In this document: one piece after another, positions 5,716 through 60,560 of the stretch
Layout: each line of letters starts with the position of its first letter
How positions within the stretch are numbered: position 1 is the stretch's first letter
Assembly (NCBI GenBank): GCA_001775095.1
Contig: MFCA01000022.1
Span: 2,162-66,161 of the forward strand
DNA length: 64,000 nucleotides
Direction of reading: 5' to 3'
Origin: Candidatus Curtissbacteria bacterium RIFOXYA1_FULL_41_14
GTDB lineage: Bacteria; Patescibacteriota; Microgenomatia; Curtissbacterales; GWA2-41-24
Notes under the pieces: model-generated
Seen by the model: only the letters and a program-made list of their open reading frames with translations
Database searches by the model: none
What the model was told of the DNA's origin: nothing
Position numbers and translations under genes: made by a program

Positions 5716-5752
5716 CTCTGAAAAGAGATCCTTCGTCGAGTCAGACTCGACT
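5716..5752. repeat. Mini hairpin repeat AGATCCTTCGTCGAGTCAGACTCGACTCAGGATGAC, palindrome GTCGAGTC-A-GACTCGAC. A second copy lies at 45611-45646.
   Basis: Two near-identical copies read directly. The same hairpin is nested inside the element at 28115-28188. Confidence 0.55.
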
Positions 5753-5765
5753 CAGGATGACAGGA

Positions 5766-6248: not shown

Positions 6249-6289
6249 TAAGCGAAGCAGATCTCCGTAATCACTAGATGGACAGGTAA

Positions 6290-6400
6290 GATAGTCTATT
6301 GAAAACTATTATTCTTCGAACAAAGTGAGAAGTCTCACAGTTCTCGCTCCGGAGAGTACCAGCCGGTACCCTCCTACGCTCGAACAATACAATAACGGTT
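6290..6400. mobile_element. MITE-like palindromic element copy A. Core GGAGAGTACC-N-GGTAC(C)CTCC flanked by inverted TTATTCTTCGAACAA / TTGTTCGAGCG arms.
   Basis: Four copies in this window (6290-6400, 24961-25150, 34981-35095, 38245-38350) are alignable by eye in both orientations. Confidence 0.6.
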
Positions 6401-6465
6401 TTCAACAAGCTCAGTTAAGTTACTTCGTGTTTTGTTTGGGCATGAGTGGTAGAATAAATTTGGTA

Positions 6466-19062: not shown

Positions 19063-20148
19063 TTGTTTGGAATGAAAGTGGTACAGATAAGAAAATACGG
19101 AGGGAATGAAGTTTTGGAGGTTAGTGATATACCAAAATCAAAACCCGGTAAAAATCAGGTATTGGTTGTGGTACATGCGGCAAGCGTTAACCCCTTTGAT
19201 TTGGCTGTCCGCTCAGGAGGAATGAGAAGTGTCTCATCCTTACAATTACCGTTTACTCTGGGCGGCGATTTTGCCGGAGTTGTTTTAGAAACTGGTGAAG
19301 ATGTAGTTGATTTTAAAATTGGTGATGAAGTTTACGGCAGCGCAATTGTATTTGGCAGTGGTTCCGGAGCTTTTGCCCAAGAGGTTAGTGTGAACATCGC
19401 AAATTGCGCTTTAAAGCCTAAAGGGGTAAATATGCAAGAGGCAGCCGCGCTGCCGCTTGTCGGATCAAGCGCTGTGCAGGCGCTTGAGGAACATATCAAA
19501 TTAAAAAATAATCAAAAGATATTGATCCATGGCGGCGCAGGCGGAATCGGCCATATTGCGATCCAGCTTGCCAAATCGAAAGGCGCGTACGTTGCCGCAA
19601 CAGTAGGGGACAAAGATAGGGAATTTGTCGAAAGGCTTGGCGCGGATGAGGTGATCGACTATAAACTTCCGAGGGCTAAGAGCCCTCGGTCTTGTTCTTT
19701 AAGTTTATATGAGCGAGCAGATGACTCAAATACTCGGAAGTATGTATTCTCTCGCATTCAGCCGCGGACTGATAGTCCACGGTATTCTGCGAGCGAATAT
19801 AAAAATCAGAAATTCGAAGATATCTTATCAGATTTTGATGCAGTGTATGATACTGTCGGAGGCGATGTCACAGAAAGGTCTTTTAGAGTTTTGAAAAAGG
19901 GCGGAATACTTGTTTCTATGAAAGGACAGCCTGATGAGAAGCTAGCTCAAAAATACCAGGTGTTTGCTATCGGACAATTCACAAAAATTAACGCAGAGCA
20001 CTTGAAGCGGCTTTCAGAACTGGTCGATGCAGACGTTGTCAAAGTTCATGTCGACAAGATTTTTACACTTGATGCGATAAAAGATGCTTTCGAATATCAA
20101 GAGATCGGCCATCCCCAAGGAAAGGTTGTTGTTAAAATTGGAAATTAA
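19063..20148 (+). CDS. Zn-independent MDR-family NADPH:quinone oxidoreductase, carrying a ~45-aa in-frame insertion encoded by a repeat element
   Basis: MKVVQIRKYGGNEVLEV...VLVVVHAASVNPFD and a GxGxxG-type GGAGGIGHIAIQ. The insertion lies between VIDYKL and FEDILSDFDAVYDTVGG. Confidence 0.7.
   Translation: MFGMKVVQIRKYGGNEVLEVSDIPKSKPGKNQVLVVVHAASVNPFDLAVRSGGMRSVSSLQLPFTLGGDFAGVVLETGEDVVDFKIGDEVYGSAIVFGSGSGAFAQEVSVNIANCALKPKGVNMQEAAALPLVGSSAVQALEEHIKLKNNQKILIHGGAGGIGHIAIQLAKSKGAYVAATVGDKDREFVERLGADEVIDYKLPRAKSPRSCSLSLYERADDSNTRKYVFSRIQPRTDSPRYSASEYKNQKFEDILSDFDAVYDTVGGDVTERSFRVLKKGGILVSMKGQPDEKLAQKYQVFAIGQFTKINAEHLKRLSELVDADVVKVHVDKIFTLDAIKDAFEYQEIGHPQGKVVVKIGN
19664..19798. mobile_element. 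~135-bp palindrome-rich repeat lying in-frame inside the quinone-oxidoreductase gene. The reverse-complement copy is at 58243-58378.
   Basis: RC alignment with 58243-58378 is about 85% identical by eye. Includes the CCGAGGGCT-AAG-AGCCCTCGG and CCGYGGACT-RAT-AGTCCACGG hairpins. Confidence 0.65.
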
Positions 20149-21306: not shown

Positions 21307-21321
21307 AAGGGGTTGAAACCT

Positions 21322-21396
21322 ATATTGTTCGAGCCCTTCGTCGAAGCTCAGGGCGAGAACTGTCAGACTTCTCACTTTGTTCGAAGAAGAATAAGG
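21322..21396. mobile_element. MITE-like element variant with the same TTGTTCGAGC...TTGTTCGAAGAA arms as the other copies but a CCCTTCGTCGAAGCTCAGGGCGAG core
   Basis: Arms are shared with the copies at 34981-35095 and 24961-25150. The core belongs to the CTTCG...CTCAGG motif family. Confidence 0.5.
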
Positions 21397-21413
21397 TTAT
21401 CAACGGACTAAAA

Positions 21414-24960: not shown

Positions 24961-25150
24961 TTAGCTTTGAGCTTATTAACCCTTATTGTTCGAGCCCCTC
25001 GTTGAAACTCAGGACGAGAACAACATGCTTCGCATATTGTTCGAGCACAGGAGAGTACCATCCGGTACTCTCCGTAGCGAGAACTTTCTGACTTCTCACT
25101 TTGTCGAGTCTAACTCGACTTTGTTCGAAGAATAACAAGGTTTTCAACAA
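24961..25150. mobile_element. Composite, nested MITE-like element: the palindromic GGAGAGTACC core plus a CCCCTCGTTGAAACTCAGGACGAG module and a GTCGAGTCTAACTCGAC hairpin module
   Basis: Contains the arm motifs twice (TTATTGTTCGAGC at about 24983 and 25037), with different cores between them. Confidence 0.5.
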
Positions 25151-25203
25151 GATCTCGGCTCAAATGTTGACAAATATGTAACTATTGTATATACTTTGGT
25201 TAT

Positions 25204-27671: not shown

Positions 27672-28118
27672 ATGCGCTACGATTTAATGGTTGCTGTTGG
27701 TATCAAGGATGCGGACTCACTTGCCGGCAAACTTGAGAAATTTATTAAAGATGCTGCGGCGCAAGAGGTAAAAGTTGAGAAGCTGGGCAAAAAGACCTTA
27801 GCTTATCCTATTGCCAAGCAGCTAGAGGCCGAGTATTTCCTGTTTAATTTCGAGGCCCCGGCAGAGGCAATTTCTGCAATTACTCAAAACCTAAGACTTG
27901 AGCGAGAGACAATATTGAGGTATCTTTTAACAAAGGTAACAAAAGTAACAAAAGGAACAAGGGGTACAAAGGGAACAAAAGAGTTAATAGAATCAGAGGG
28001 TGAGAAAACAAAAGAAACAGGGAAAGTTGTGGTAAAGACGGTAGTAAAGGCAGGTACAAAGGTAACGAAAGGAACAAAGGGTACAAAAGGAACAAAAGTG
28101 AAAGGAAAGAAAAGTTGA
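27672..28118 (+). CDS. rpsF: 30S ribosomal protein S6 with a lysine-rich low-complexity C-terminal extension
   Basis: MRYDLMVAVGIKDAD...KTLAYPIAKQLEAEYFLFNFEA is an S6 core. The tail is KVTKGTKGTKGTK. Confidence 0.8.
   Translation: MRYDLMVAVGIKDADSLAGKLEKFIKDAAAQEVKVEKLGKKTLAYPIAKQLEAEYFLFNFEAPAEAISAITQNLRLERETILRYLLTKVTKVTKGTRGTKGTKELIESEGEKTKETGKVVVKTVVKAGTKVTKGTKGTKGTKVKGKKS
27934..28100 (+). repeat. Two blocks of tandem 9-nt repeats (GGTAACAAA / AGGAACAAA / GGGTACAAA) inside rpsF, encoding (V/G)TKG repeats
   Basis: Read directly. The repeats are multiples of 3 and in-frame. Confidence 0.55.
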
Positions 28119-28188
28119 CCCCACTTCGTCGAGTCAGACTCGACTTCGTCAAGTGAAACTTGACTTAGAGGGGCAAGGCAATTGACAA
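28115..28188. repeat. Paralogue of the 12033-12085 element carrying a nested GAGTCAGACTCGACTTCGTC hairpin insertion flanked by the direct repeat CTTCGTC
   Basis: Alignment with 12033-12085. The extra 20 nt equals the core of the mini-hairpin repeat. Confidence 0.55.
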
Positions 28189-28200
28189 TTAATAAACGAC

Positions 28201-28764
28201 ATGGCAAGTAGAGCATCGTTGAACAAAGTATTATTAATTGGAAATCTGACAAGAGATCCGGAGTTGAGATATACGCCTTCAGGCGCGGCGGTTTGTTCTT
28301 TCGGGCTGGCTACAAATAGAGTTTACGTTGCTTCTGACGGTACTAAAAAAGAGGAAGCGGAATTTATCAGGATCGTTTCCTGGAATAAACTGGCCGAGCT
28401 TTGTTCGCAGCTTCTTTCAAAAGGCAGGAAAGTTTATGTTGAAGGAAGATTGCAGACGAGAAGCTGGGAGACCCCCGATGGAATAACTAAGCAGACAACG
28501 GAAGTAGTTATTGATGACATGAGAATTCTGGATTCCCGCAGAAGTTTCGAGGAAGCCAGCACGGGGGAAAATATCCCTTATATAGAAAATACATCTGCAA
28601 GCCAGACAAAAGTCAAAGAGCCATCTTCCTTCGCTAAAGCTACGGAGGACAAGGAGAGTCTAAGGGTCAAAGAGTCAAAGGGGACAAAAGGGTCAAAAGA
28701 GCCAAAGGATTCAAATGGAGGCGGAGATGAGGATAAAATAGATTTAGACGATTTGCCATTTTAA
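28201..28764 (+). CDS. ssb: Single-stranded DNA-binding protein
   Basis: OB-fold N-terminus LNKVLLIGNLTRDPELRYTPSGAAVCSF...W. Acidic tail ending in DDLPF. Confidence 0.8.
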   Translation: MASRASLNKVLLIGNLTRDPELRYTPSGAAVCSFGLATNRVYVASDGTKKEEAEFIRIVSWNKLAELCSQLLSKGRKVYVEGRLQTRSWETPDGITKQTTEVVIDDMRILDSRRSFEEASTGENIPYIENTSASQTKVKEPSSFAKATEDKESLRVKESKGTKGSKEPKDSNGGGDEDKIDLDDLPF

Positions 28765-31403: not shown

Positions 31404-31458
31404 ATCCCAGTGCACACCCCCGGGGTGCGCGTCGGCAATCGTCTATTGCTCACCCCGG
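31404..31458. repeat. Double palindrome CACACCCCCGGGGTGCG-N22-CTCACCCCGGGGGTGAGC lying between the convergent genes htrA and dedA. Likely a bidirectional terminator and a member of a mobile repeat family whose paralogue sits inside prfA.
   Basis: Palindromes read directly. Preceded by the hairpin TTCCGAATAAAATTCGGAA and (AATTTCA)x4. Confidence 0.6.
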
Positions 31459-31472
31459 GGGTGAGCTATGAA

Positions 31473-33599: not shown

Positions 33600-34517
33600 T
33601 TATTCATGTAGGGCATCAATTATTTTATCCAATTTGCCATTCATTACTTCTTCCAGGTTGTGCCATGACTTATTAATTCTATGGTCTGTAATGCGATTCT
33701 GGGGATAATTATAAGTGCGGATTTTTTCGGAGCGGTCGCCCGTGCCCAGTTGGGCTGAGCGTTGAGAACTGAGTTGAGAGGATTGCTTTTCTTCTTCAAG
33801 TTGATAAATTTTTGAGCGCAAGATTCCCATAGCGATTTCGCGGTTTTGGCCTTGTGAACGTTCGGTTTGAGCCTTAACAACAATTCCGGTCGGTTTGTGT
33901 TTAATTCTGACGGCGGTTGAAACTTTATTAACATTTTGACCGCCGTGGCCGCCGGAACGGAAAGCTTCAAATTCAATATCGGCAGGATCAATAATAACTT
34001 GAGTCGGAGGTACTTCCGGCAAAATCGCAACTGTAGCAGTTGAGGTATGAATACGGCCGGATGACTCGGTGACAGGAACTCTTTGAACCCGGTGGACACC
34101 TGATTCATGTTGAAGTTTTTCAAAAACGTTTTTGCCGGAAATTTTAACAATTACAGTCTTGATATTTCCAAGTCCGCCTTCGGTGCAGTCCAATTCTTCA
34201 AACTGCCATCTGTTGTTGACGGCAAACTTTTGATACATTCGCAGAAGATCGGCTGCGAAAAGCCCGGCTTCATCGCCGCCGGCAGCGGAGCGGATTTCTA
34301 GAATGACAGACGAGTTTGTGGGCCCACCCCCGGGGTGCGATCCGGGTGACGTCAAGACTTCACCCCGGGGGTGAGTCAGGGCAATTTTTTCTTCTTCAAG
34401 CTTCTCTATTTCTTCCTGCGCGAGCTCGGCCATAGAAGGGTCAGCTGACACTAATTCTTGAGCTTCTTTAATCTTCTTTTCAATATTTTCAATTTGTTGT
34501 TTTTGATAATCGGTCAT
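33600..34517 (-). CDS. prfA: Peptide chain release factor 1 with an in-frame palindromic-element insertion in the N-terminal domain
   Basis: GGQ motif [14 protein letters not shown]1-type PVT tripeptide in [16 protein letters not shown]. The extra segment [21 protein letters not shown] is encoded by the element. Confidence 0.85.
34318..34384. mobile_element. Double-palindrome element (CACCCCCGGGGTG ... CACCCCGGGGGTG) inserted in-frame within prfA. Paralogue of 31404-31458.
   Basis: Same two palindromes and a similar spacer as the intergenic copy. The ORF remains open through it. Confidence 0.65.
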
Positions 34518-34926: not shown

Positions 34927-34980
34927 TTCAGGCTATTTTAGCAAAATTGGCATATTTTTTACAATTATTAACGATGATCT

Positions 34981-35095
34981 TGTTAAAAACCCTTATTGTT
35001 CGAGCACAGGAGAGTACCGTCCGGTACTCTCCGCAGCGAGAACTCAAACTTCTCACGTTGTTCGAAGAATAATAGTTTTCAATAGACTATCGATG
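34981..35095. mobile_element. MITE-like palindromic element copy C
   Basis: CCCTTATTGTTCGAGCACAGGAGAGTACCGTCCGGTACTCTCCGCAGCGAGAAC...TTCTCACGTTGTTCGAAGAATAA, a near-perfect RC of copy D. Confidence 0.65.
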
Positions 35096-35977: not shown

Positions 35978-36234
35978 TTTAATTTCTAATTTCTAATTTC
36001 TAAATCCTAAACAAATCAAAATGACCAAAATTCAAAACAATTTTAAGAGAAATTTATCTTTTTTGATCATTTGATATTTGAATTTTGAAATTGTTTAGAG
36101 TTTAGAATTTAGAGTTTAGAATTTTTATTAGTCATTAGGTTAATATCAGCATGAGCTTCGCTCATCTGATATATCAGTAAACTTCATTAGATTTTTATAT
36201 TAATTACAATAATTGAAGTTTAGCTGATATTAGG
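35978..36234. repeat. ~260-bp AT-rich intergenic element, copy 1, in reverse orientation and abutting the eamA start
   Basis: RC aligns by eye with 59764-60028. Contains the CTAAACTCTAAATTCTAAAC and TTAGGATTTAGAAATTAGAAATT blocks and a CTGATATATCAG-hairpin-CTGATAT module. Confidence 0.65.
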
Positions 36235-37134
36235 TCAATTTTGTATCGCTTCAATAAGTCGGTCAAGGCCGAAAGAAAAGCCGACAGCAGGAATTTGCCT
36301 TTTAGAAAACATGCCAATTAAGTTATCGTATCTGCCGCCTGAGCCAATGGATAAATTGCCATAAGACGGGATTTTTAGTTCAAAAATCGCTCCTGTGTAA
36401 TAATCAAGACCGCGGGCTAAAAGGGGGTCAAAAATATATTCCCGACTATCGATTCCCCCCTCATCAAGAATTTTAAAAAGTGATTTAAGATTATCAGTCA
36501 GCGGTTTATTTGCCATACTCTGGAGTATGGCAGTTGCTTTCGCTTTTGAAAGCCCCTTTTGCGTTAATTCGTTGACAACTCCTTCTTCGCCGATCTTTTC
36601 CAGTTTATCAAGAGCGATGACGACTTCCTTGTCAACTCCTTCAAAATTTTTGCGGTCGTTAATTTTAATTTGCGAGCTTTTAAGGCCAACTGCTTTGACA
36701 GCTTTAAGTGCGGCGGCGATAATTTTTGCGTCTTCTTCTAAACTGTCTGATCCGACAGTGTCAAAGTCCAGTTGAGTGAATTCGCGATAGCGGCCTTTTT
36801 GGGGATTTTCGCCGCGGAAAACCTGGCCGATTTGATACCGGCGAAAGGGCAGTGGGGGATTATTAGTTGCGACATAACGGGCGACTGGAACGGTCAGATC
36901 GTAGCGCAGAGCCAAGTCTCTGCCGCCGCGATCTTTAAACTCATAGATTAGTCTTTCCTCCTCACCATATTTACCTTTTAGAGTCTCGGCAAATTCGATA
37001 GTTGGTGTTTCGATTGGTGCAAAACCGAACTCTTCCAGTACATCGACGATCTGATTAATAACAGCTCGTCTTTTTTTGGCTAGATCCGGTTTAATATCGC
37101 GGAAGCCTTTTGGTGTCGGCGGGGCTTTTTGCAT
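36235..37134 (-). CDS. hisS: Histidyl-tRNA-synthetase-like catalytic core (class II motifs 1-3) lacking a C-terminal anticodon-binding domain
   Basis: RYDLTVPVARYVA, FRRYQIGQVFRGENPQKGRYREFTQ (motif 2) and GGRYDNLIGMF...AVGFSFGLDRL (motif 3). The ORF ends 5 aa after motif 3. Confidence 0.6.
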   Translation of the reverse strand: MQKAPPTPKGFRDIKPDLAKKRRAVINQIVDVLEEFGFAPIETPTIEFAETLKGKYGEEERLIYEFKDRGGRDLALRYDLTVPVARYVATNNPPLPFRRYQIGQVFRGENPQKGRYREFTQLDFDTVGSDSLEEDAKIIAAALKAVKAVGLKSSQIKINDRKNFEGVDKEVVIALDKLEKIGEEGVVNELTQKGLSKAKATAILQSMANKPLTDNLKSLFKILDEGGIDSREYIFDPLLARGLDYYTGAIFELKIPSYGNLSIGSGGRYDNLIGMFSKRQIPAVGFSFGLDRLIEAIQN

Positions 37135-38134: not shown

Positions 38135-38445
38135 AATTTCTAATTGCCTTAATTACTAAAAACCCTAAACTCTAAATTCTAAACTCCTGCCTGCCGGCAG
38201 GCAGGCTAAACAATTTCAAAATACAAAACTCAAATGATCAAAAAAGAGATAGTCTATTGAAATCCTTATTCTTCGAACAACGTGAGAAGTTTGAGTTCTC
38301 GCTGCGGAGAGTACCGTCCGGTACTCTCCTGCGCTCGAACAATATGTTTATCATCCTGTTTTGAATTTTAGATTTACCTCATTTGGATTTATTTAGGATT
38401 TAGAAATTAGAAATTAGAATTTTACTCTTTAGGTCTTTTAGCTTA
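38135..38445. repeat. AT-rich element copy 2, interrupted by a nested MITE-like copy D (38245-38350) and an extra CCTGCCTGCCGGCAGGCAGG palindrome. Lies between divergent gene starts.
   Basis: Both flanks align with copy 3. The MITE-like copy D (38245-38350) sits between them. Confidence 0.6.
38245..38350. mobile_element. MITE-like palindromic element copy D, nested inside the AT-rich element
   Basis: Reverse complement of copy C. Confidence 0.65.
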
Positions 38446-45603: not shown

Positions 45604-45610
45604 TGTAGAC

Positions 45611-45646
45611 AGATCCTTCGTCGAGTTGGACTCGACTCAGGATGAC
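45611..45646. repeat. Mini hairpin repeat, second copy (AGATCCTTCGTCGAGTTGGACTCGACTCAGGATGAC). Its ATG is the first in-frame start of the downstream ORF.
   Basis: Near-identical to 5716-5752. Confidence 0.55.
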
Positions 45647-55932: not shown

Positions 55933-57219
55933 ATGAAGCTTTACGAGTTTGAAGGACATCGGATTCTTGCAAAAGTCGGGATAGAAAGCCCTTTTTTTGT
56001 TGCTTGTTCGAATTTAGACGAGGTAAAACAGGCTCGCAAACGTCTTAAATTTCCAATGGTTGCCAAAGTGCAAGTACTTTCCGGCAGGCGGGGCAAGTCT
56101 GGCGGAGTAAAATTTCTCTCAAACGAGAAACAACTTTTAACCTTTGCAAAAGAAATGTTTGGGAACAAATTTAATGGGGAGGACGTCAGATTTATAAGTT
56201 TTTCTAAAAAAATCGAGATCGAAAAAGAACTCTACCTTTCGATTGCCTACGATACTATCAAAAAAAATCCCTTTTTTCTTTTTTGTGAAGAGGGTGGCGT
56301 TGATATCGAAGAGGTAAAAAAGAGGAGTCCTGAAAAGATTGTTAGAGTAGATATTGATTCGTTGACCGGACCGACGAAAAAGAATCTGGAAGCGCTGTTT
56401 AGGCATGAACTCGTCGATTTTGCAACCCGTCTTTGGGATGCTTTTTGGCGATTTGATTGCCGTATGGTGGAGATTAACCCGTTAGCACTTGTCAGAGAAT
56501 CTGGATCTCACCCCCGGATTGAAGTCAAGACGAAATCTGGGGTGCACCTCGGGGATGGGCATAGTTATGTCGCTATTGATGCCAAAATCATCCTTGACGA
56601 TGCAGGTTTGGCAAGACATCGCGATTTGGATGTTTTGCCAAAGGGCGCAGCGAGTGCGGTACCGACAGAGAGAGAACTGGCAGCAAGAAAGGTTGATGAA
56701 GGTGACTGGCGGGGAACCGCCGGCTCTATTTTTATTGAGCTTGACGGTGACATCGCTGTTTTAGCGTCCGGCGGCGGAGCCAGTCTTTTGACAATGGATG
56801 CGCTGACTTCAGCCGGCGGTAAAGGGGCAAACTATACTGAATATTCTGGTAATCCACCGGCAGAAAAAGTTGAAAAATTAACAAAAATTACTTTGGATAG
56901 AGAAAATCTCAGCGGGTGTTTAGTTTGTGGAGCAGTAGCCAACTTTACAGACATTTATGAAACCTTAAAAGGTTTTACTGAGGGTTTAAGGCAGGTCAGA
57001 CCAAAGCCAAGTTATCCAATCGTCATCCGACGGGGAGGTCCGGGACAGGAGAAGATATACGAAGTAATTGGCAAGATTGCCCAAAAAGAAGATTACGACA
57101 TTCATCTTTTTGGGCCTGAGACACCGATATCAGTTGCGTGTCAAAAGATGGTAGAACTATCTAACGACTATAAAATTCGAAATCCGAAGTACGAAAGTAA
57201 AATCGATTCGTATGATTAG
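55933..57219 (+). CDS. Succinyl-CoA-synthetase-beta-like ATP-grasp subunit (SucC/CcsA/AclB family)
   Basis: Aligns by eye along the full length with SucC (KVQVLSGRRGKSGGVKF, VEINPLAL, LASGGGASLLTMDAL). Confidence 0.7.
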   Translation: MKLYEFEGHRILAKVGIESPFFVACSNLDEVKQARKRLKFPMVAKVQVLSGRRGKSGGVKFLSNEKQLLTFAKEMFGNKFNGEDVRFISFSKKIEIEKELYLSIAYDTIKKNPFFLFCEEGGVDIEEVKKRSPEKIVRVDIDSLTGPTKKNLEALFRHELVDFATRLWDAFWRFDCRMVEINPLALVRESGSHPRIEVKTKSGVHLGDGHSYVAIDAKIILDDAGLARHRDLDVLPKGAASAVPTERELAARKVDEGDWRGTAGSIFIELDGDIAVLASGGGASLLTMDALTSAGGKGANYTEYSGNPPAEKVEKLTKITLDRENLSGCLVCGAVANFTDIYETLKGFTEGLRQVRPKPSYPIVIRRGGPGQEKIYEVIGKIAQKEDYDIHLFGPETPISVACQKMVELSNDYKIRNPKYESKIDSYD

Positions 57220-57285
57220 TATCCATTAGTATATTGGTATCAATGCTAATATACGAATTTATGCTAATTATACAAATATGAGTAT

Positions 57286-58176
57286 ATGGCCATTTTAGTC
57301 AATAGAGATACGCGAGTTTTAATTCAAGGAGTTACAGGTAGATCAGGAACGCAAGTTACGGGCGAGCTATTGGACTATGGTATGAGAGTACTTGCAGGAG
57401 TAACTCCGGGTAAGGGCGGCCAAGAGATAGAGGCGGTGCCGGTTTTTAATTCAATCAAAGAAGCGGTTGAACAAATCGGACCAGTTGACGTCTCGATGGT
57501 TTATGTTCCGCCACTTCTTGCTTATGAAGCAGCGATTGAAGCGATTGAAGCGCAAATTCCCTTAATCCACATTTTCGCCGAGAAAATTCCGATTTTTGAT
57601 ACTTGCCGAATTCTTTCGATGGCCGCTAAAAAAAACGTCCGGGTTTTAGGACCGGCTTCAGTCGGAGCAATTTCTCCAGGCGAAGGTAAGATTGGTTCAA
57701 TCGGCGGACCCAAGCCGGAGGCAGTTTTTTCAAAAGGACCGGTCGGTGTAGTTTCCAGGTCTGGCGGGATGTGTGCCGAGCTTGGTCTTTTAATTTCAAA
57801 TGCCGGTCTTGGGCAGTCAACGGTTGTTGGTATCGGCGGGGATTTGCTTATTGGAATGGACTTATCCGATGTGCTTTTGAATTTTGAGGCAGATGCGCAA
57901 ACAAAAGTTGTGGTGGCTTTTGGTGAAGTTGGGGGTAGTCAAGAGATAGAAGCTAGTAGACTTTTGAAAAATGGCCAGGTAACTAAACCTGTAATTGTTT
58001 TTCTGGCAGGAACTTTTGCTGAAAGTTTGCCAAAAGATACCAGTCTTGGTCATGCCGGAGCTATTGTCGGTCTGGAAACAACAATGAAGGAAAAGATCAA
58101 GACGCTTAAAGATTGCGGTGCAGTTGTTGCCGAAAAATTTGAAGACATACCATTACTAATTAAAAAGTCTCTATAA
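57286..58176 (+). CDS. Succinyl-CoA-synthetase-alpha-like subunit (SucD/CcsB family) with the phosphohistidine loop
   Basis: VLIQGVTGRSGT, GVTPGKGG, SRSGGM and the active His in SLGHAGAIVG. Confidence 0.75.
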   Translation: MAILVNRDTRVLIQGVTGRSGTQVTGELLDYGMRVLAGVTPGKGGQEIEAVPVFNSIKEAVEQIGPVDVSMVYVPPLLAYEAAIEAIEAQIPLIHIFAEKIPIFDTCRILSMAAKKNVRVLGPASVGAISPGEGKIGSIGGPKPEAVFSKGPVGVVSRSGGMCAELGLLISNAGLGQSTVVGIGGDLLIGMDLSDVLLNFEADAQTKVVVAFGEVGGSQEIEASRLLKNGQVTKPVIVFLAGTFAESLPKDTSLGHAGAIVGLETTMKEKIKTLKDCGAVVAEKFEDIPLLIKKSL

Positions 58177-58242
58177 ACATCCTTATAAATATCTGAAAGC
58201 CCTGTTTAGCATTATTGATTTTGATTTTGATGATTATTTATA

Positions 58243-58378
58243 TTCGCTCGCAGAACACCGTGGACTATTAGTCCACGGATGAGGAGCGAGAGAATACATA
58301 CTTCCGAGGAGCGGGATGTTCTGCTCGCTCATGTAAACTTAAAGAACAATACCGAGGGCTCTTAGCCCTCGGAAGTTT
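58243..58378. mobile_element. Intergenic copy of the ~135-bp palindrome-rich repeat that is in-frame in the oxidoreductase gene
   Basis: RC alignment to 19664-19798. Contains perfect hairpins CCGTGGACTA/TTAGTCCACGG and CCGAGGGCTCTTAGCCCTCGG. Confidence 0.65.
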
Positions 58379-58415
58379 ATAATATTTGTATCCGTGAATT
58401 AATTCATAGATACAA

Positions 58416-58853
58416 ATGGCGCAAATTTCTAAAAGACAATTAGGCAGGAAACTTGAGTTGAAAGTTTACGATTCTTTTTGGAGAGTAATAGCAAATATTA
58501 AAAATAGAGAAGAGGTCTCTGACTTTTTTTCCGACTGTTTGACTCGAACCGAGCGGGTTTATTTGGCAAAAAGGATGGCTATCGCGGTACTTTTGTCAAA
58601 AGGTTATGATTACCGATCTATAAGTAATATGTTAAAAGTTTCCACAGGGACGGTGGGAAGAGTGGCAAGTAAAATAGAAGAGAAAGGCTGGAAACTTTTT
58701 GTCAGGAAACTCGAGGGTTTAGAAGATTGGGATAAGTTTTGGCATGATATGGAGAAACTTTTGATGAGGTCTACAGGTGCAGGGAGAAGGATGTTTTTAA
58801 GCGAGGAAGAAATCGAAGGTATCGTCAGGAAGCATAAAAGATTGTCTTCATGA
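58416..58853 (+). CDS. YerC/YecD (TrpR-like) DNA-binding protein
   Basis: LTRTERVYLAKRMAIAVLLSKGYDYRSISNMLKVSTGTVGRV resembles the Trp-repressor-like YerC fold. Confidence 0.55.
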   Translation: MAQISKRQLGRKLELKVYDSFWRVIANIKNREEVSDFFSDCLTRTERVYLAKRMAIAVLLSKGYDYRSISNMLKVSTGTVGRVASKIEEKGWKLFVRKLEGLEDWDKFWHDMEKLLMRSTGAGRRMFLSEEEIEGIVRKHKRLSS

Positions 58854-59022
58854 ATTAATTCATGAAGACAAGGTTCTTTTTGATTTTAAAAATGTAGTTT
58901 TAAGTTTCATGACTGAAAGAGAAGATCTCGATTCTGATTTTGAACTCACCAGGGGAGTTTGCTTTTCAGGGCGAAGATGGGCGAAGCTAGAATGATTAGC
59001 TGAATTTAGGTATACTTAAACC

Positions 59023-59763
59023 GTGATGCCAAAGCCGTACCGGACTTCAATAACCACCCATGCTGATGGTTCACCTCATGTATACGGTTATGATCTGACA
59101 AAGCTTGCCGGGAATACCTCTTTTGCCAAGGCTATCTACCTTATTCTTAAAGGTCAAATGCCGGATAAGGCGAGCGAGAAGATGTTTGAGGCGATGTTAA
59201 CGATCGCTATCGATCACGGTGTTGAACCTCCATCAGTTGTTGCTGCAAGAAACGTTTCTTCGGGCGGTAGTCCAATTCAGGCGGCGGTTGCGGCCGGGGT
59301 ACTGGCGCTTGGGGAATTTCACGGAGGAGCAATTGAGAAGGCGATGGAAAATTTTAAAAAATATCAGGGTGTTGGGGTTAAGATAATGGTTGATGATTTT
59401 AACAAAAATGGCGAGCGTATTTCCGGTTTCGGCCATCGACTATATGCTGACGATCCCAGAACGCAAAGGCTTTTAGAAATTGCCAAGGAACTTGGTTTTT
59501 TCGGTAAATATGTCAAATTTGCTCTTGAAGTTGAAGCAGAAATTTCCAAAGAGTCAAAAAAATTACCTCTTAATATCGACGGATGTTTTTCAGTACTGCT
59601 CTTGGAAATGGGATTCAATCCCAAGGTCGCCAACGGTATTTTTATAATTGCCAGAACACCGGGGTTGGTGGCTCACGTAGTTGAGGAAACCTTGCGTGAG
59701 AAACCGGCAAGGCGGTTAACCGAAAACGATGTGGAATATGACGGACCAAGACCGAGACGGTAA
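59023..59763 (+). CDS. Truncated citrate-synthase-family protein (citryl-CoA-lyase-like, C-terminal catalytic part only)
   Basis: Conserved citrate-synthase catalytic contexts HGGA, GFGHRLY...DPR and IARTPGLVAHVVEE. It lacks the ~150-aa N-terminal region of full citrate synthases. Confidence 0.65.
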   Translation: MMPKPYRTSITTHADGSPHVYGYDLTKLAGNTSFAKAIYLILKGQMPDKASEKMFEAMLTIAIDHGVEPPSVVAARNVSSGGSPIQAAVAAGVLALGEFHGGAIEKAMENFKKYQGVGVKIMVDDFNKNGERISGFGHRLYADDPRTQRLLEIAKELGFFGKYVKFALEVEAEISKESKKLPLNIDGCFSVLLLEMGFNPKVANGIFIIARTPGLVAHVVEETLREKPARRLTENDVEYDGPRPRR

Positions 59764-60028
59764 ATTGATCTAATATCAGCTAAACTTCAATTATTATAAT
59801 TAATATAAAAATCTAATGAAGTTTACTGATATATCAGATTCGCCGAAGGCGAAGGCTGATATTAACCTAATGACTTAACAAAATCCTAAACTCTAAATTC
59901 TAAACTCTAAACAATATCAAAATTCAAATGTTCCAAAAAATAATTAAACTTAAAATTGTTTTGAATTTTGTATTTTGATTATTTGGATTTATTTAGGATT
60001 TAGGATTTAGAAATTAGAAATTTCAAAT
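59764..60028. repeat. ~260-bp AT-rich intergenic element, copy 3, filling the whole spacer between the citrate-synthase-like gene's stop and the ruvC ATG
   Basis: Aligns with the RC of 35978-36234 and with the flanks of 38135-38445. Confidence 0.65.
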
Positions 60029-60553
60029 ATGATTATTTTTGGCATTGATCCTGGGACAGCTACAACTGGCTATGGGGTTATAAAGAAAGTTAAAAGCTCT
60101 CTCGAATTGGTAGATTACGGGTGCATAAGTACATGTAAAGATGACCCAATGCCCTTGAGGTTATATAGTATCCAAAAATCTTTAAAGAGCTTACTCAGAC
60201 AGTTTAATCCTGATTGTGTTGTTGTAGAGCAATTGTTCTTTGGTGCGAATTCCCGTACTGCAATGACTGTTGGACAAGCAAGGGGAGTAGTGCTCTCGTC
60301 CGTTGCGTCCTATAGGCTTCCCATATTTGAATACCAGGGATTACATGTTAAACATACTTTAACTGGAAATGGCAGGGCAGACAAAAAAGAAATCCAAAAA
60401 TCGGTGATGAAATACTTGAGAAAAAGAACATTGAGAAAACCGACAAACGGATATCTTGACGACGCAGCTGATGCCTTAGCCGTGGCAATTTGTCATGCGA
60501 TTAAGATTAAAGGTAACAAAAGTGTCAAAGCTGACAAAAGTGTCAAAGGCTAG
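60029..60553 (+). CDS. ruvC: Holliday junction resolvase RuvC
   Basis: MIIFGIDPGTATTGYGVI... catalytic DxG/E pattern. Length 174 aa. Confidence 0.8.
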   Translation: MIIFGIDPGTATTGYGVIKKVKSSLELVDYGCISTCKDDPMPLRLYSIQKSLKSLLRQFNPDCVVVEQLFFGANSRTAMTVGQARGVVLSSVASYRLPIFEYQGLHVKHTLTGNGRADKKEIQKSVMKYLRKRTLRKPTNGYLDDAADALAVAICHAIKIKGNKSVKADKSVKG

Positions 60554-60560
60554 CTGCTTC

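Follow-up and report, generated by a model that had tools for sequence, protein, structure and literature searches.

Layered palindromic elements of a Curtissbacteria genome whose arms flank a small GIY-YIG nuclease gene in related genomes

Introduction

Ssn nucleases cut single-stranded DNA beside hairpin repeats that flank their own genes, and the insertion sequence (IS)-like layout of the NTS-ssnA-NTS arrangement was noted by its authors (Chenal et al. 2025, PMC11893778). Ssn and its SRM repeats are the closest known system to a family of palindromic repeats that we describe here from a 64,000-nt stretch of Candidatus Curtissbacteria bacterium RIFOXYA1_FULL_41_14 (contig MFCA01000022.1, positions 2,162 to 66,161), called the window below. 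Five copies (A to E) of this family are present in the window, four with a core hairpin, H1, and one (E) with another core. Their arms, R' and L', are found in related genomes on either side of a gene coding for a small GIY-YIG protein. We consider that the window copies are probably members of a family of layered, non-autonomous palindromic elements specific to Microgenomates, and that their arms may be the substrate of a GIY-YIG nuclease acting in trans.

As in the Ssn/SRM system, a single-domain GIY-YIG protein of about 90 amino acids is encoded between copies of a hairpin repeat, and the repeat is scattered genome-wide with an IS-like layout. Unlike the Ssn proteins, which form the cd10448 clade, the protein described here appears, from its solved relatives, to lean towards the UPF0213 type. 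The flanks of its gene are complementary halves of one palindrome and not two self-contained hairpins, R' and L' do not fit the published SRM motif, and that motif (HGTCWYN(0-2)YYVSBRHN(0-5)WNVSBRGN(0-2)RNCYNB) had 0 matches in the window versus 0.2 in shuffles. Gene-less derivatives with target-site duplications and in-frame insertions in coding sequences are found here and are not described for Ssn, and the published Ssn survey (PMC11893778) does not mention Patescibacteria.

The repeats also share features with several other families. Like miniature inverted-repeat transposable elements (MITEs; Correia, RUP, Nezha), they are small, non-coding and multi-copy, with terminal inverted repeats, target-site duplications and insertion polymorphism between relatives; unlike MITEs, they are unusually modular, with palindromes within palindromes, no DDE transposase parent was found for them in the window nor one of IS6 type in about 1 Mb of loci, and their only gene-bearing relative encodes a GIY-YIG nuclease. 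The repetitive extragenic palindromic (REP) sequences and REPINs that accompany the IS200/IS605-related RAYT genes are likewise dispersed short palindromes with one small nuclease-type gene between repeats and a likely hairpin or single-stranded DNA substrate. The enzyme here is, however, a GIY-YIG hydrolase and not a HUH/Y1 transposase, and REPs have no target-site duplications whereas the outer layer described here makes duplications of 8-9 bp. No HUH/Y1 transposase turned up in the Pfam scan of the window open reading frames (ORFs), a scan that was not aimed at one. The Rickettsia palindromic elements of Ogata and colleagues (2000) are reportedly also inserted in frame in protein genes and kept as extra peptide segments, but they are unrelated in sequence and host, are said to be 100-150 bp long and have no known partner gene. 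The SDR repeats of Nostoc and other cyanobacteria, the subject of work by Elhai and colleagues in 2008, are said to be palindromic modules of 17-27 nt nested in other repeats, as here, but their sequences and host phylum differ. A cyanobacterial origin by way of SDR or HIP1 repeats was rejected, the window having 0 HIP1 (GCGATCGC) sites and the host belonging to Curtissbacteria. In the literature we found no description of MITEs in Patescibacteria and no UPF0213/YhbQ proteins linked to repeats.

Results

The window copies and their arms

The earlier note on this stretch had described four copies of a MITE-like repeat with a common core hairpin and a fifth element with the same arms around another core, and all five were found again, beyond chance. 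The core motif GGAGAGTACCGTCCGGTACTCTCC occurs at the four H1 positions of Table 1 with 0-3 mismatches, and shuffled sequence gave 0 matches. The arm motifs TATTGTTCGAGC (six sites in the window, two of these in copy B), GCGAGAAC-N-ACTTCTCAC (five sites) and TTGTTCGAAGAA (five exact sites) are all confined to the five copies, when 0-0.8 sites were expected by chance, and a looser search of the window gave no further remnants. Copies A, D and E were recovered with the same flanks in independent assemblies from other samples, which rules out that the copies are one collapsed repeat misassembled at several places.

The copies are 100-204 bp long, contain no ORF and all lie between ORFs. Read in the orientation beginning TTATTCTTCGAAC, they consist of an outer arm on the left (TAGTCTATTGAAAAC), then R', a loop that is short and variable, L' carrying a GC-rich hairpin, and an outer arm on the right (GGTTTTCAACAAGCT). 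R' is TTATTCTTCGAACAAAGTGAGAAG, in the window copies TTATTCTTCGAACAA(A/C)GTGAGAAG, and L' is GTTCTCGC..GCTCGAACAATAA, in the window copies GTTCTCGC ... GCTCGAACAATA. The outer inverted repeats are TAGTCTGYTGAAAACC ... GGTTTTCARCAAGCT, which places the true ends of the elements further out than first given.

The arms beyond the window and the core as a secondary insertion

A genome scan with the pattern TTCTCACNTTGTTCGAAGAA, using one genome per species, gave 21 places, five of which are chance matches (coding sequence of Vibrio and Cyclobacteriaceae, and ribosomal operons of Lachnospiraceae). The remaining ones are in metagenome-assembled genomes (MAGs) of Patescibacteria (Gottesman-, Davies-, Curtiss- and Levybacteria, Saccharibacteria and unclassified) and in MAGs labelled Gammaproteobacteria or Pseudomonadales. 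The PurD of one locus labelled Gammaproteobacteria (L024; L numbers designate fetched loci) has its best relatives in Levy- and Daviesbacteria, so this label is doubtful; the same kind of label is carried by L013, L014, L019 and L021 (Gammaproteobacteria) and by L009 (Pseudomonadales). A metagenome scan yielded 87 stretches carrying 93 matches (about 45 distinct). The distribution is patchy and multi-copy, over Curtiss-, Gottesman-, Davies- and Levybacteria, Saccharibacteria and other Patescibacteria.

The usual form in the scanned genomes is a bare imperfect palindrome of 45-47 nt, (T)TA TTCTTCGAACAAAGTGAGAAG GTTCTCGCTGCGCTCGAACAA TA(A), which has no core hairpin and is flanked by TA in every case. 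The general forms of the arms are (T)TA-TTCTTCGAACAAAGTGAGAAG for R' and GTTCTCGC-n3-5-GCTCGAACAA-TA(A) for L'.

The earlier note had described a family with a perfect palindromic core. H1 is in fact GGAGAGTACC-N4-GGTACTCTCC, a 10-bp stem with a 4-nt loop, and Curtissbacteria-type copies were found that lack it and are otherwise identical to those of the window (GTTCTCGCTACGCTCGAAC versus GTTCTCGCTAC[GGAGAGTATCAGACGGTACTCTCC]TACGCTCGAAC). Since exactly 27 nt are missing from these sister copies, the core is a secondary 24-nt hairpin accompanied by a 3-nt duplication (TAC or TGC) and set within an element older than itself. It was seen in 18 distinct contexts, at one and the same position each time, and its place can be taken by other hairpins, among them the type found in copy E (CCTGAG..GAAGGG) and CCTGCCTGCCGGCAGGCAGG. 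It is the arm pair R'/L', and not the core, that is conserved and characterises the family.

The hairpin CCTGCCTGCCGGCAGGCAGG is itself a perfect palindrome of 20 nt. It lies alone in an AT-rich repeat of the window (Table 1) and occurs also at L085:5899, L049:6451 and L065:4675. It forms a clean 20-nt insertion in unrelated hosts (in one case an R'/L' element of another genome) and so has the look of a tiny insertion module of its own.

A GIY-YIG gene between the arms

Several of the pattern hits have, directly 3' of R', a small ORF that begins ..WKWYVYIIEC.DGLYYTG.. These small proteins were made into a profile, which gave, on all fetched DNA, seven independent loci, with the order R' - ORF - L' in six of the seven and, in the seventh (L082), a complete R'-L' unit on either side of the gene. 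In order to avoid circularity, a protein database was searched with one such protein, which gave 206 relatives at E <= 1e-10; the 120 listed of these 206 are 82-139 amino acids long, and those with a named source belong to Levy-, Curtiss-, Davies- and Gottesmanbacteria. In the loci picked by protein alone, R' precedes the gene and L' follows it in 4/4 cases. The arms therefore bracket a gene for an 82-90-aa GIY-YIG protein in 11 of 11 independent loci (seven picked by DNA pattern and four by protein). R' is interrupted by a hairpin in some of the protein-picked loci, and further gene-less R'-L' units are often found in tandem.

The R'-GIY-YIG-L' unit measures about 330-400 bp, with about 300 nt between the arms, and the stop codon of the gene abuts L' or falls inside it (TA|GTTCTC, or ..LEQ* from CTCGAACAATAA). 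GIY-YIG (Pfam PF01541) is the sole domain of the proteins. Among solved structures, 1zg2 (E = 8e-15) and 1ywl (E = 1.5e-8), of the UPF0213 proteins BH0048 and EF2693, are closest to them, and their HK-GKG-FT motif is UPF0213-like; NCBIfam gave no match. The earlier note had suggested a cognate IS with inverted repeats matching TTATTCTTCGAACAA. None was found, and the arm-bearing gene in the related genomes is that of the 82-90-aa GIY-YIG nuclease. No transposase or integrase was present among the 40 window ORFs scanned with Pfam or among the genes already annotated in the fetched loci.

Three further observations concern GIY-YIG genes. An in-frame TGA is present near the start of the ORFs at about L013/L113:9445-9460 (MKK*KWYVY) and at L063:8220-8240 (MRWK*YVY, with Trp in relatives); these are either pseudogenes or genes of hosts that recode TGA. 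At L127:2755-2800 (Daviesbacteria), folD is called from a start codon within the 3' end of the GIY-YIG gene and takes its first 11 residues (MDLVLTNRSNNK-IIDGRKLA) from L'; here a gene start has been reshaped by the element. Ssn-like GIY-YIG genes (YYVYI..TLYIGVT) are present in the related contigs L039, L044, L063 and L075.

The arms could alternatively be operators of a DNA-binding regulator, PurBox-like (..CGAAC..) or LexA-like (GAAC/GTTC), which would explain their purD, purP and folA neighbours. Half-site-like CGAAC and GTTCG motifs, which resemble PurBox and Cheo boxes, are indeed present in the arms, and several genome hits adjoin purine or folate genes. The distance between the arms, however, varies from 0 to >100 nt and reaches about 300 nt when the nuclease gene is between them, and arms are found inside coding regions and beside unrelated genes. 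This variable spacing, the coding-region copies and the target-site duplications described below, to which empty sites can be added, led us to reject an explanation that has next to no likelihood.

Evidence for mobility

Comparison with four related Curtissbacteria contigs, which share the gene order DnaB / metallo-hydrolase / hypothetical / HisS-like / (EamA) / L31 / PrfA, showed that the EamA-rpmE spacer occupied by copy C in the window is 41, 31 and 59 nt long in three related Curtissbacteria versus 160 nt in the window, and the R' motif was not found in 80 kb of these related contigs when up to four mismatches were allowed. The promoter-like stretch AATTTTGCTAAAAT, which lies beyond copy C in the window, directly follows the stop codon in L027. 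A HisS-like protein encoded in the window has 100% identity with one of Candidatus Curtissbacteria bacterium GW2011_GWD1_40_8 and at most 82% with those of the next Curtissbacteria relatives.

The earlier note had proposed a search for target-site duplications at the ends of the elements, and duplications of 8-9 bp were found in Curtissbacteria-type copies. Among 16 candidate full-length copies of this type, exact flanking repeats of 9, 8, 8, 8, 6, 6, 6 and 5 bp were observed, while in 240 control pairs that combined the left flank of one copy with the right flank of another, no repeat was as long as 8 bp and two were as long as 6 bp. No duplication could be defined for copies B, D and E of the window. 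Taken with the terminal inverted repeats and the absence of the element from the syntenic sites of relatives, these duplications agree with the first description of the copies as non-autonomous and MITE-like, and MITE-like mobility is well supported.

In-frame insertions were found in six genes, in five of them as the full palindrome (Table 1), and three genes (purD, prmC and the thymidylate-synthase-like gene) use the same frame (..YSSNKVRSS..). The comparison of purD with its empty site showed that the 19-codon insert corresponds to the 47-nt palindrome plus 10 nt, with no recognisable duplication. The purD element is identical at 42 of 47 nt between two lineages, and all third codon positions of the arms are the same while neighbouring synonymous sites have diverged. 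This conservation reflects nucleotide-level constraint, homogenisation among the copies or insertion more than once at a single spot.

The conservation of synonymous positions in purD, between lineages whose proteins are 63% identical, could also speak for a structured cis-regulatory or stabilising RNA, or a terminator, retained for its role as RNA and not as mobile DNA. The copies do fold strongly, into a long closing stem with 2-3 internal hairpins (as RNA, -35 to -63 kcal/mol, with z of -4.0 to -5.9 for A-D; as single-stranded DNA, z of -3.8 to -5.0), only copy E being at the level of shuffled sequence (z about -1 to -2), and the first 21 genome hits were usually just upstream of a gene and co-oriented with it. 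The orientation bias that these hits suggested was nevertheless gone in the larger set, with 24 elements co-oriented and 20 anti-oriented with respect to neighbouring genes, a balance more in keeping with movement as DNA than with a function as RNA. The two strands are about equal in their folding, a U-tract for termination is missing, and Rfam gave no credible match on copy C even at E = 10, a tRNA being the only match in the window at gathering score. Together with the target-site duplications, the empty syntenic sites and the in-frame coding insertions, these results make an RNA role very improbable.

The target-site duplications bear on another explanation, an ordinary IS-derived MITE that would owe its movement to a DDE transposase (possibly IS6-like) acting in trans from a gene elsewhere, with R'/L' and the hairpins as passengers and the GIY-YIG gene irrelevant to movement. 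Duplications of 8-9 bp are typical of DDE transposition, the outer arms are absent from the GIY-YIG units, and a solo outer palindrome (GCCGTTGAAAACCGGCCGTTTTTCAAC) is possibly present in L027, a single and doubtful case. Elements of the IS6 family make 8-bp duplications and have ends of the form GGNNCTGTTGCAAA. The duplication length fits this family, and the outer arm core CTGTTGAAAA resembles the IS26/IS257 end (GGCACTGTTGCAAA / GGTTCTGTTGCAAA), with a similarity limited to the CTGTTG-AAA core. However, in agreement with the earlier note no transposase was detected in the window, and a search of about 1 Mb of related loci gave none of IS6 type (Tnp26-like). The outer arms, apart from the doubtful case of L027, never occur without R'/L', and the R'/L' palindrome spreads alone in lineages devoid of outer arms. 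We regard this explanation as unlikely.

Two other origins were considered and rejected. A phage origin found no match in viral contigs, and a composite transposon suggested by two R' located 4.3 kb apart (L046/L062) encloses only leuS and an ordinary gene.

Anatomy of the window copies

Copies C and D, which the earlier note had called near-perfect reverse complements, are 96% complementary across 79 nt. The H1 loop, relative to the arms, is GTCC in D and GGAC in C although the two copies are otherwise near-identical, which corresponds to a flip of the hairpin and not to a random change. Copy B is a composite, as first described, but not a one-off, since its layout (an L' with the core hairpin, an ATGCRAAGCAT linker and a second L' with an E-type hairpin) recurs in many metagenome copies. 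Copy D lies, as had also been reported, within an AT-rich repeat, at its centre, and this arrangement of an element centred in an AT-rich palindrome recurs in other genomes. The AT-rich family is characterised by runs of TTTAGAA/TTTAGGA heptamers; small hairpins are swapped between its copies (GAGCGAAGCTC versus TCGCCGAAGGCGA) and the contents of the centre differ.

The genes adjoining the window copies code for glyoxalase, DUF763, ZIP, alkylation repair, rpmE and metallo-hydrolase functions and do not make up a single regulon, as operator arms would require. Copy E is located between the convergent genes of a ZIP transporter and a DUF4349 protein, and the TAG stop codon of the EamA gene falls inside an outer arm of copy C. 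The 17-nt palindrome that splits R' in copy B is also found alone at three positions.

Table 1. Positions of the palindromic copies, of their parts and of other repeats in the window, and genes of other loci with in-frame insertions
Feature	Position in window or locus	Strand	Description
Copy A	6292-6411	+	Outer arm TAGTCTATTGAAAAC, R', H1 within L', outer arm GGTTTTCAACAAGCT
H1 of copy A	6351-6374		GGAGAGTACCAGCCGGTACCCTCC
Flanking near-duplication of copy A	6283-6290 / 6412-6419		CAGGTAAG / CAGTTAAG, 7/8 matching
Copy E	21311-21410	-	Same arms; H2 hairpin CCCTTCGTCGAAGCTCAGGG replaces H1 in L'
Copy B	~24963-25166	-	R' split by 17-nt palindrome, L' with H1, ATGCGAAGCAT linker, second L', outer arms
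Second L' module of copy B	24985-25021		With H2-type hairpin
H1 of copy B	25050-25073
17-nt palindrome in R' of copy B	25103-25119		GTCGAGTCTAACTCGAC, TTT/TTT duplication on its flanks
17-nt palindrome, alone	5735, 28128, 45620		GTCGAGTCTAACTCGAC
Copy C (reported locus)	34977-35089	-	Complete element, in spacer from EamA-family gene to rpmE
Flanking duplication of copy C	35091-35095 / 34972-34976		CATCG, both in minus-strand reading, 5/5 matching
H1 of copy C	35009-35032		TGC/TGT on its flanks
Copy D	38250-38356	+	Left outer arm, R', L' with H1; ATGTTTATCATCC in place of right outer arm
H1 of copy D	38306-38329		Exact TGC/TGC duplication on its flanks
AT-rich palindromic repeat	38135-38445		Hosts copy D
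Uninterrupted relatives of AT-rich repeat	35981-36241, 59762-60028
20-nt palindrome	38188-38207		CCTGCCTGCCGGCAGGCAGG, alone in AT-rich repeat
~143-nt repeat	19660-19803, 58237-58381		TATAAACTTCCGAGGGCTAAGAGCCCTCGG ... GGACTRATAGTCCACGG ... GCGAATATAAA, ~90% alike
GATCCTTCGTCGAGTCAGACTCGACTCAGGATGAC family	5719-5761, 28115-28165, 45604-45646
Tandem 9-nt repeats	27921-28114, 28675-28715 (also 60507-60556)		ACAAAGGKA
GC-rich repeat family	31412-31465, 34322-34375, 56507-56560		Paired CACCCCCGGGGTG palindromes
ATP-citrate-lyase-like genes	55933-59763
purD	L024, L030		In frame; proteins 63% identical, 18-19 inserted residues missing from 6 other close PurDs
Thymidylate-synthase-like gene	L007		In-frame insertion
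prmC	L112		In-frame insertion
U32 peptidase gene	L020		In frame, R' half only
O-antigen-ligase-like gene	L032		In frame, opposite orientation

Other repeats and genes

Several other repeats were noticed in the window (Table 1). One copy of the ~143-nt repeat adds 48 codons in frame (KLPRAKSPRS...SEYKN) to the gene of a zinc-type alcohol dehydrogenase / quinone oxidoreductase, and the other is intergenic, amid the ATP-citrate-lyase-like genes. The latter genes (ATP-grasp_2 + Citrate_bind; CoA_binding + Ligase_CoA; citrate synthase C-terminal domain), present here in a CPR (Candidate Phyla Radiation) genome, are interrupted by a Trp-repressor-like gene and repeats. The GATCCTTCGTCGAGTCAGACTCGACTCAGGATGAC family has GTCAT...ATC flanks that recall the NTS/SRM repeats of Ssn, and does not match the published SRM pattern. 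The first block of ACAAAGGKA repeats crosses the 3' end of the ribosomal protein S6 ORF, the 3' part of the SSB gene contains the second, and both probably encode repetitive tails. Outside the window, the leuS gene at L046:5990-6080 contains a different element, an in-frame palindromic insert (CCCCACTCCGCTACACAGAGTGGAGCTTCGAGGGG...) with a duplicated ..IESKW.. segment around it.

Discussion

The results can be accommodated by a layered scheme. The innermost layer is the pair of arms R' and L', which in related genomes stand around a GIY-YIG gene and, where the gene is missing, join into the 45-47-nt palindrome that is found both between genes and in frame within them. In the Curtissbacteria-type copies, this palindrome is elaborated by enclosure within the outer repeats, insertion makes the 8-9-bp duplications, and nested GC-rich hairpins, of which the reported core inside L' is one, represent a further layer. 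The arms would fold into a hairpin or cruciform serving as substrate for the GIY-YIG nuclease in trans, and nicking by this enzyme may drive the spread or the turnover of copies. On this view, copies devoid of the gene would have arisen from the R'-GIY-YIG-L' unit by internal deletion, or would serve as its homing sites, and those of the window would need a nuclease whose gene is located in another part of the genome, or else a transposase acting on the outer repeats. Action of the nuclease on the arms is inferred from the example set by the Ssn nucleases with their SRM/NTS hairpins and by the RAYT/REP pairs, and a nuclease-hairpin mechanism is plausible.

Several observations weigh against this scheme. 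The 64-kb window contains no GIY-YIG gene of this kind. The GIY-YIG units have no outer inverted repeats, so the 8-9-bp duplications are a property of the outer layer. An unrelated transposase may mobilise that layer, with the R'/L' palindrome as a mere passenger. Neither the minimal palindromes nor the GIY-YIG units have a target-site duplication that could be defined, and their constant TA flanks are maybe part of the repeat. As a hairpin the minimal palindrome is weak (-6 to -7 kcal/mol, z about -1.5). Moreover, GIY-YIG enzymes hydrolyse DNA and are not known to perform strand transfer, so that such an enzyme may not be enough for transposition.

A more far-reaching proposal, which we put forward tentatively as a possibility, is that the R'-GIY-YIG-L' unit is a minimal autonomous element of about 350 bp, encoding only an 82-90-aa UPF0213-type nuclease that recognises the hairpin of its own ends, and that the palindromes of 45-190 bp, including the window copies and the in-frame inserts, are its offspring or homing sites. 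If this were so, the UPF0213/YhbQ-type proteins, for which we know of no reported function, would be a second and independent clade of hairpin-specific nucleases besides Ssn.

The genomes of CPR/Patescibacteria, of about 1 Mb, are usually called streamlined. The spacers of this Curtissbacteria genome are nonetheless filled with nested palindromes, and the same family is found in frame in housekeeping genes of several CPR lineages. For annotation, the elements account for odd peptide inserts (..YSSNKVRSS..) and for shifted start and stop codons in CPR genes. The evidence as a whole points to a poorly known nuclease-plus-hairpin-repeat system rather than to an ordinary transposase-derived element. 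The link between the arms and UPF0213-type proteins would extend the idea of a nuclease coupled to hairpin repeats from Ssn (cd10448) to another GIY-YIG clade and another phylum, would give a testable function to a widespread protein family of unknown role, and provides candidate sequence- or structure-specific nucleases of the practical interest that has been raised for Ssn.

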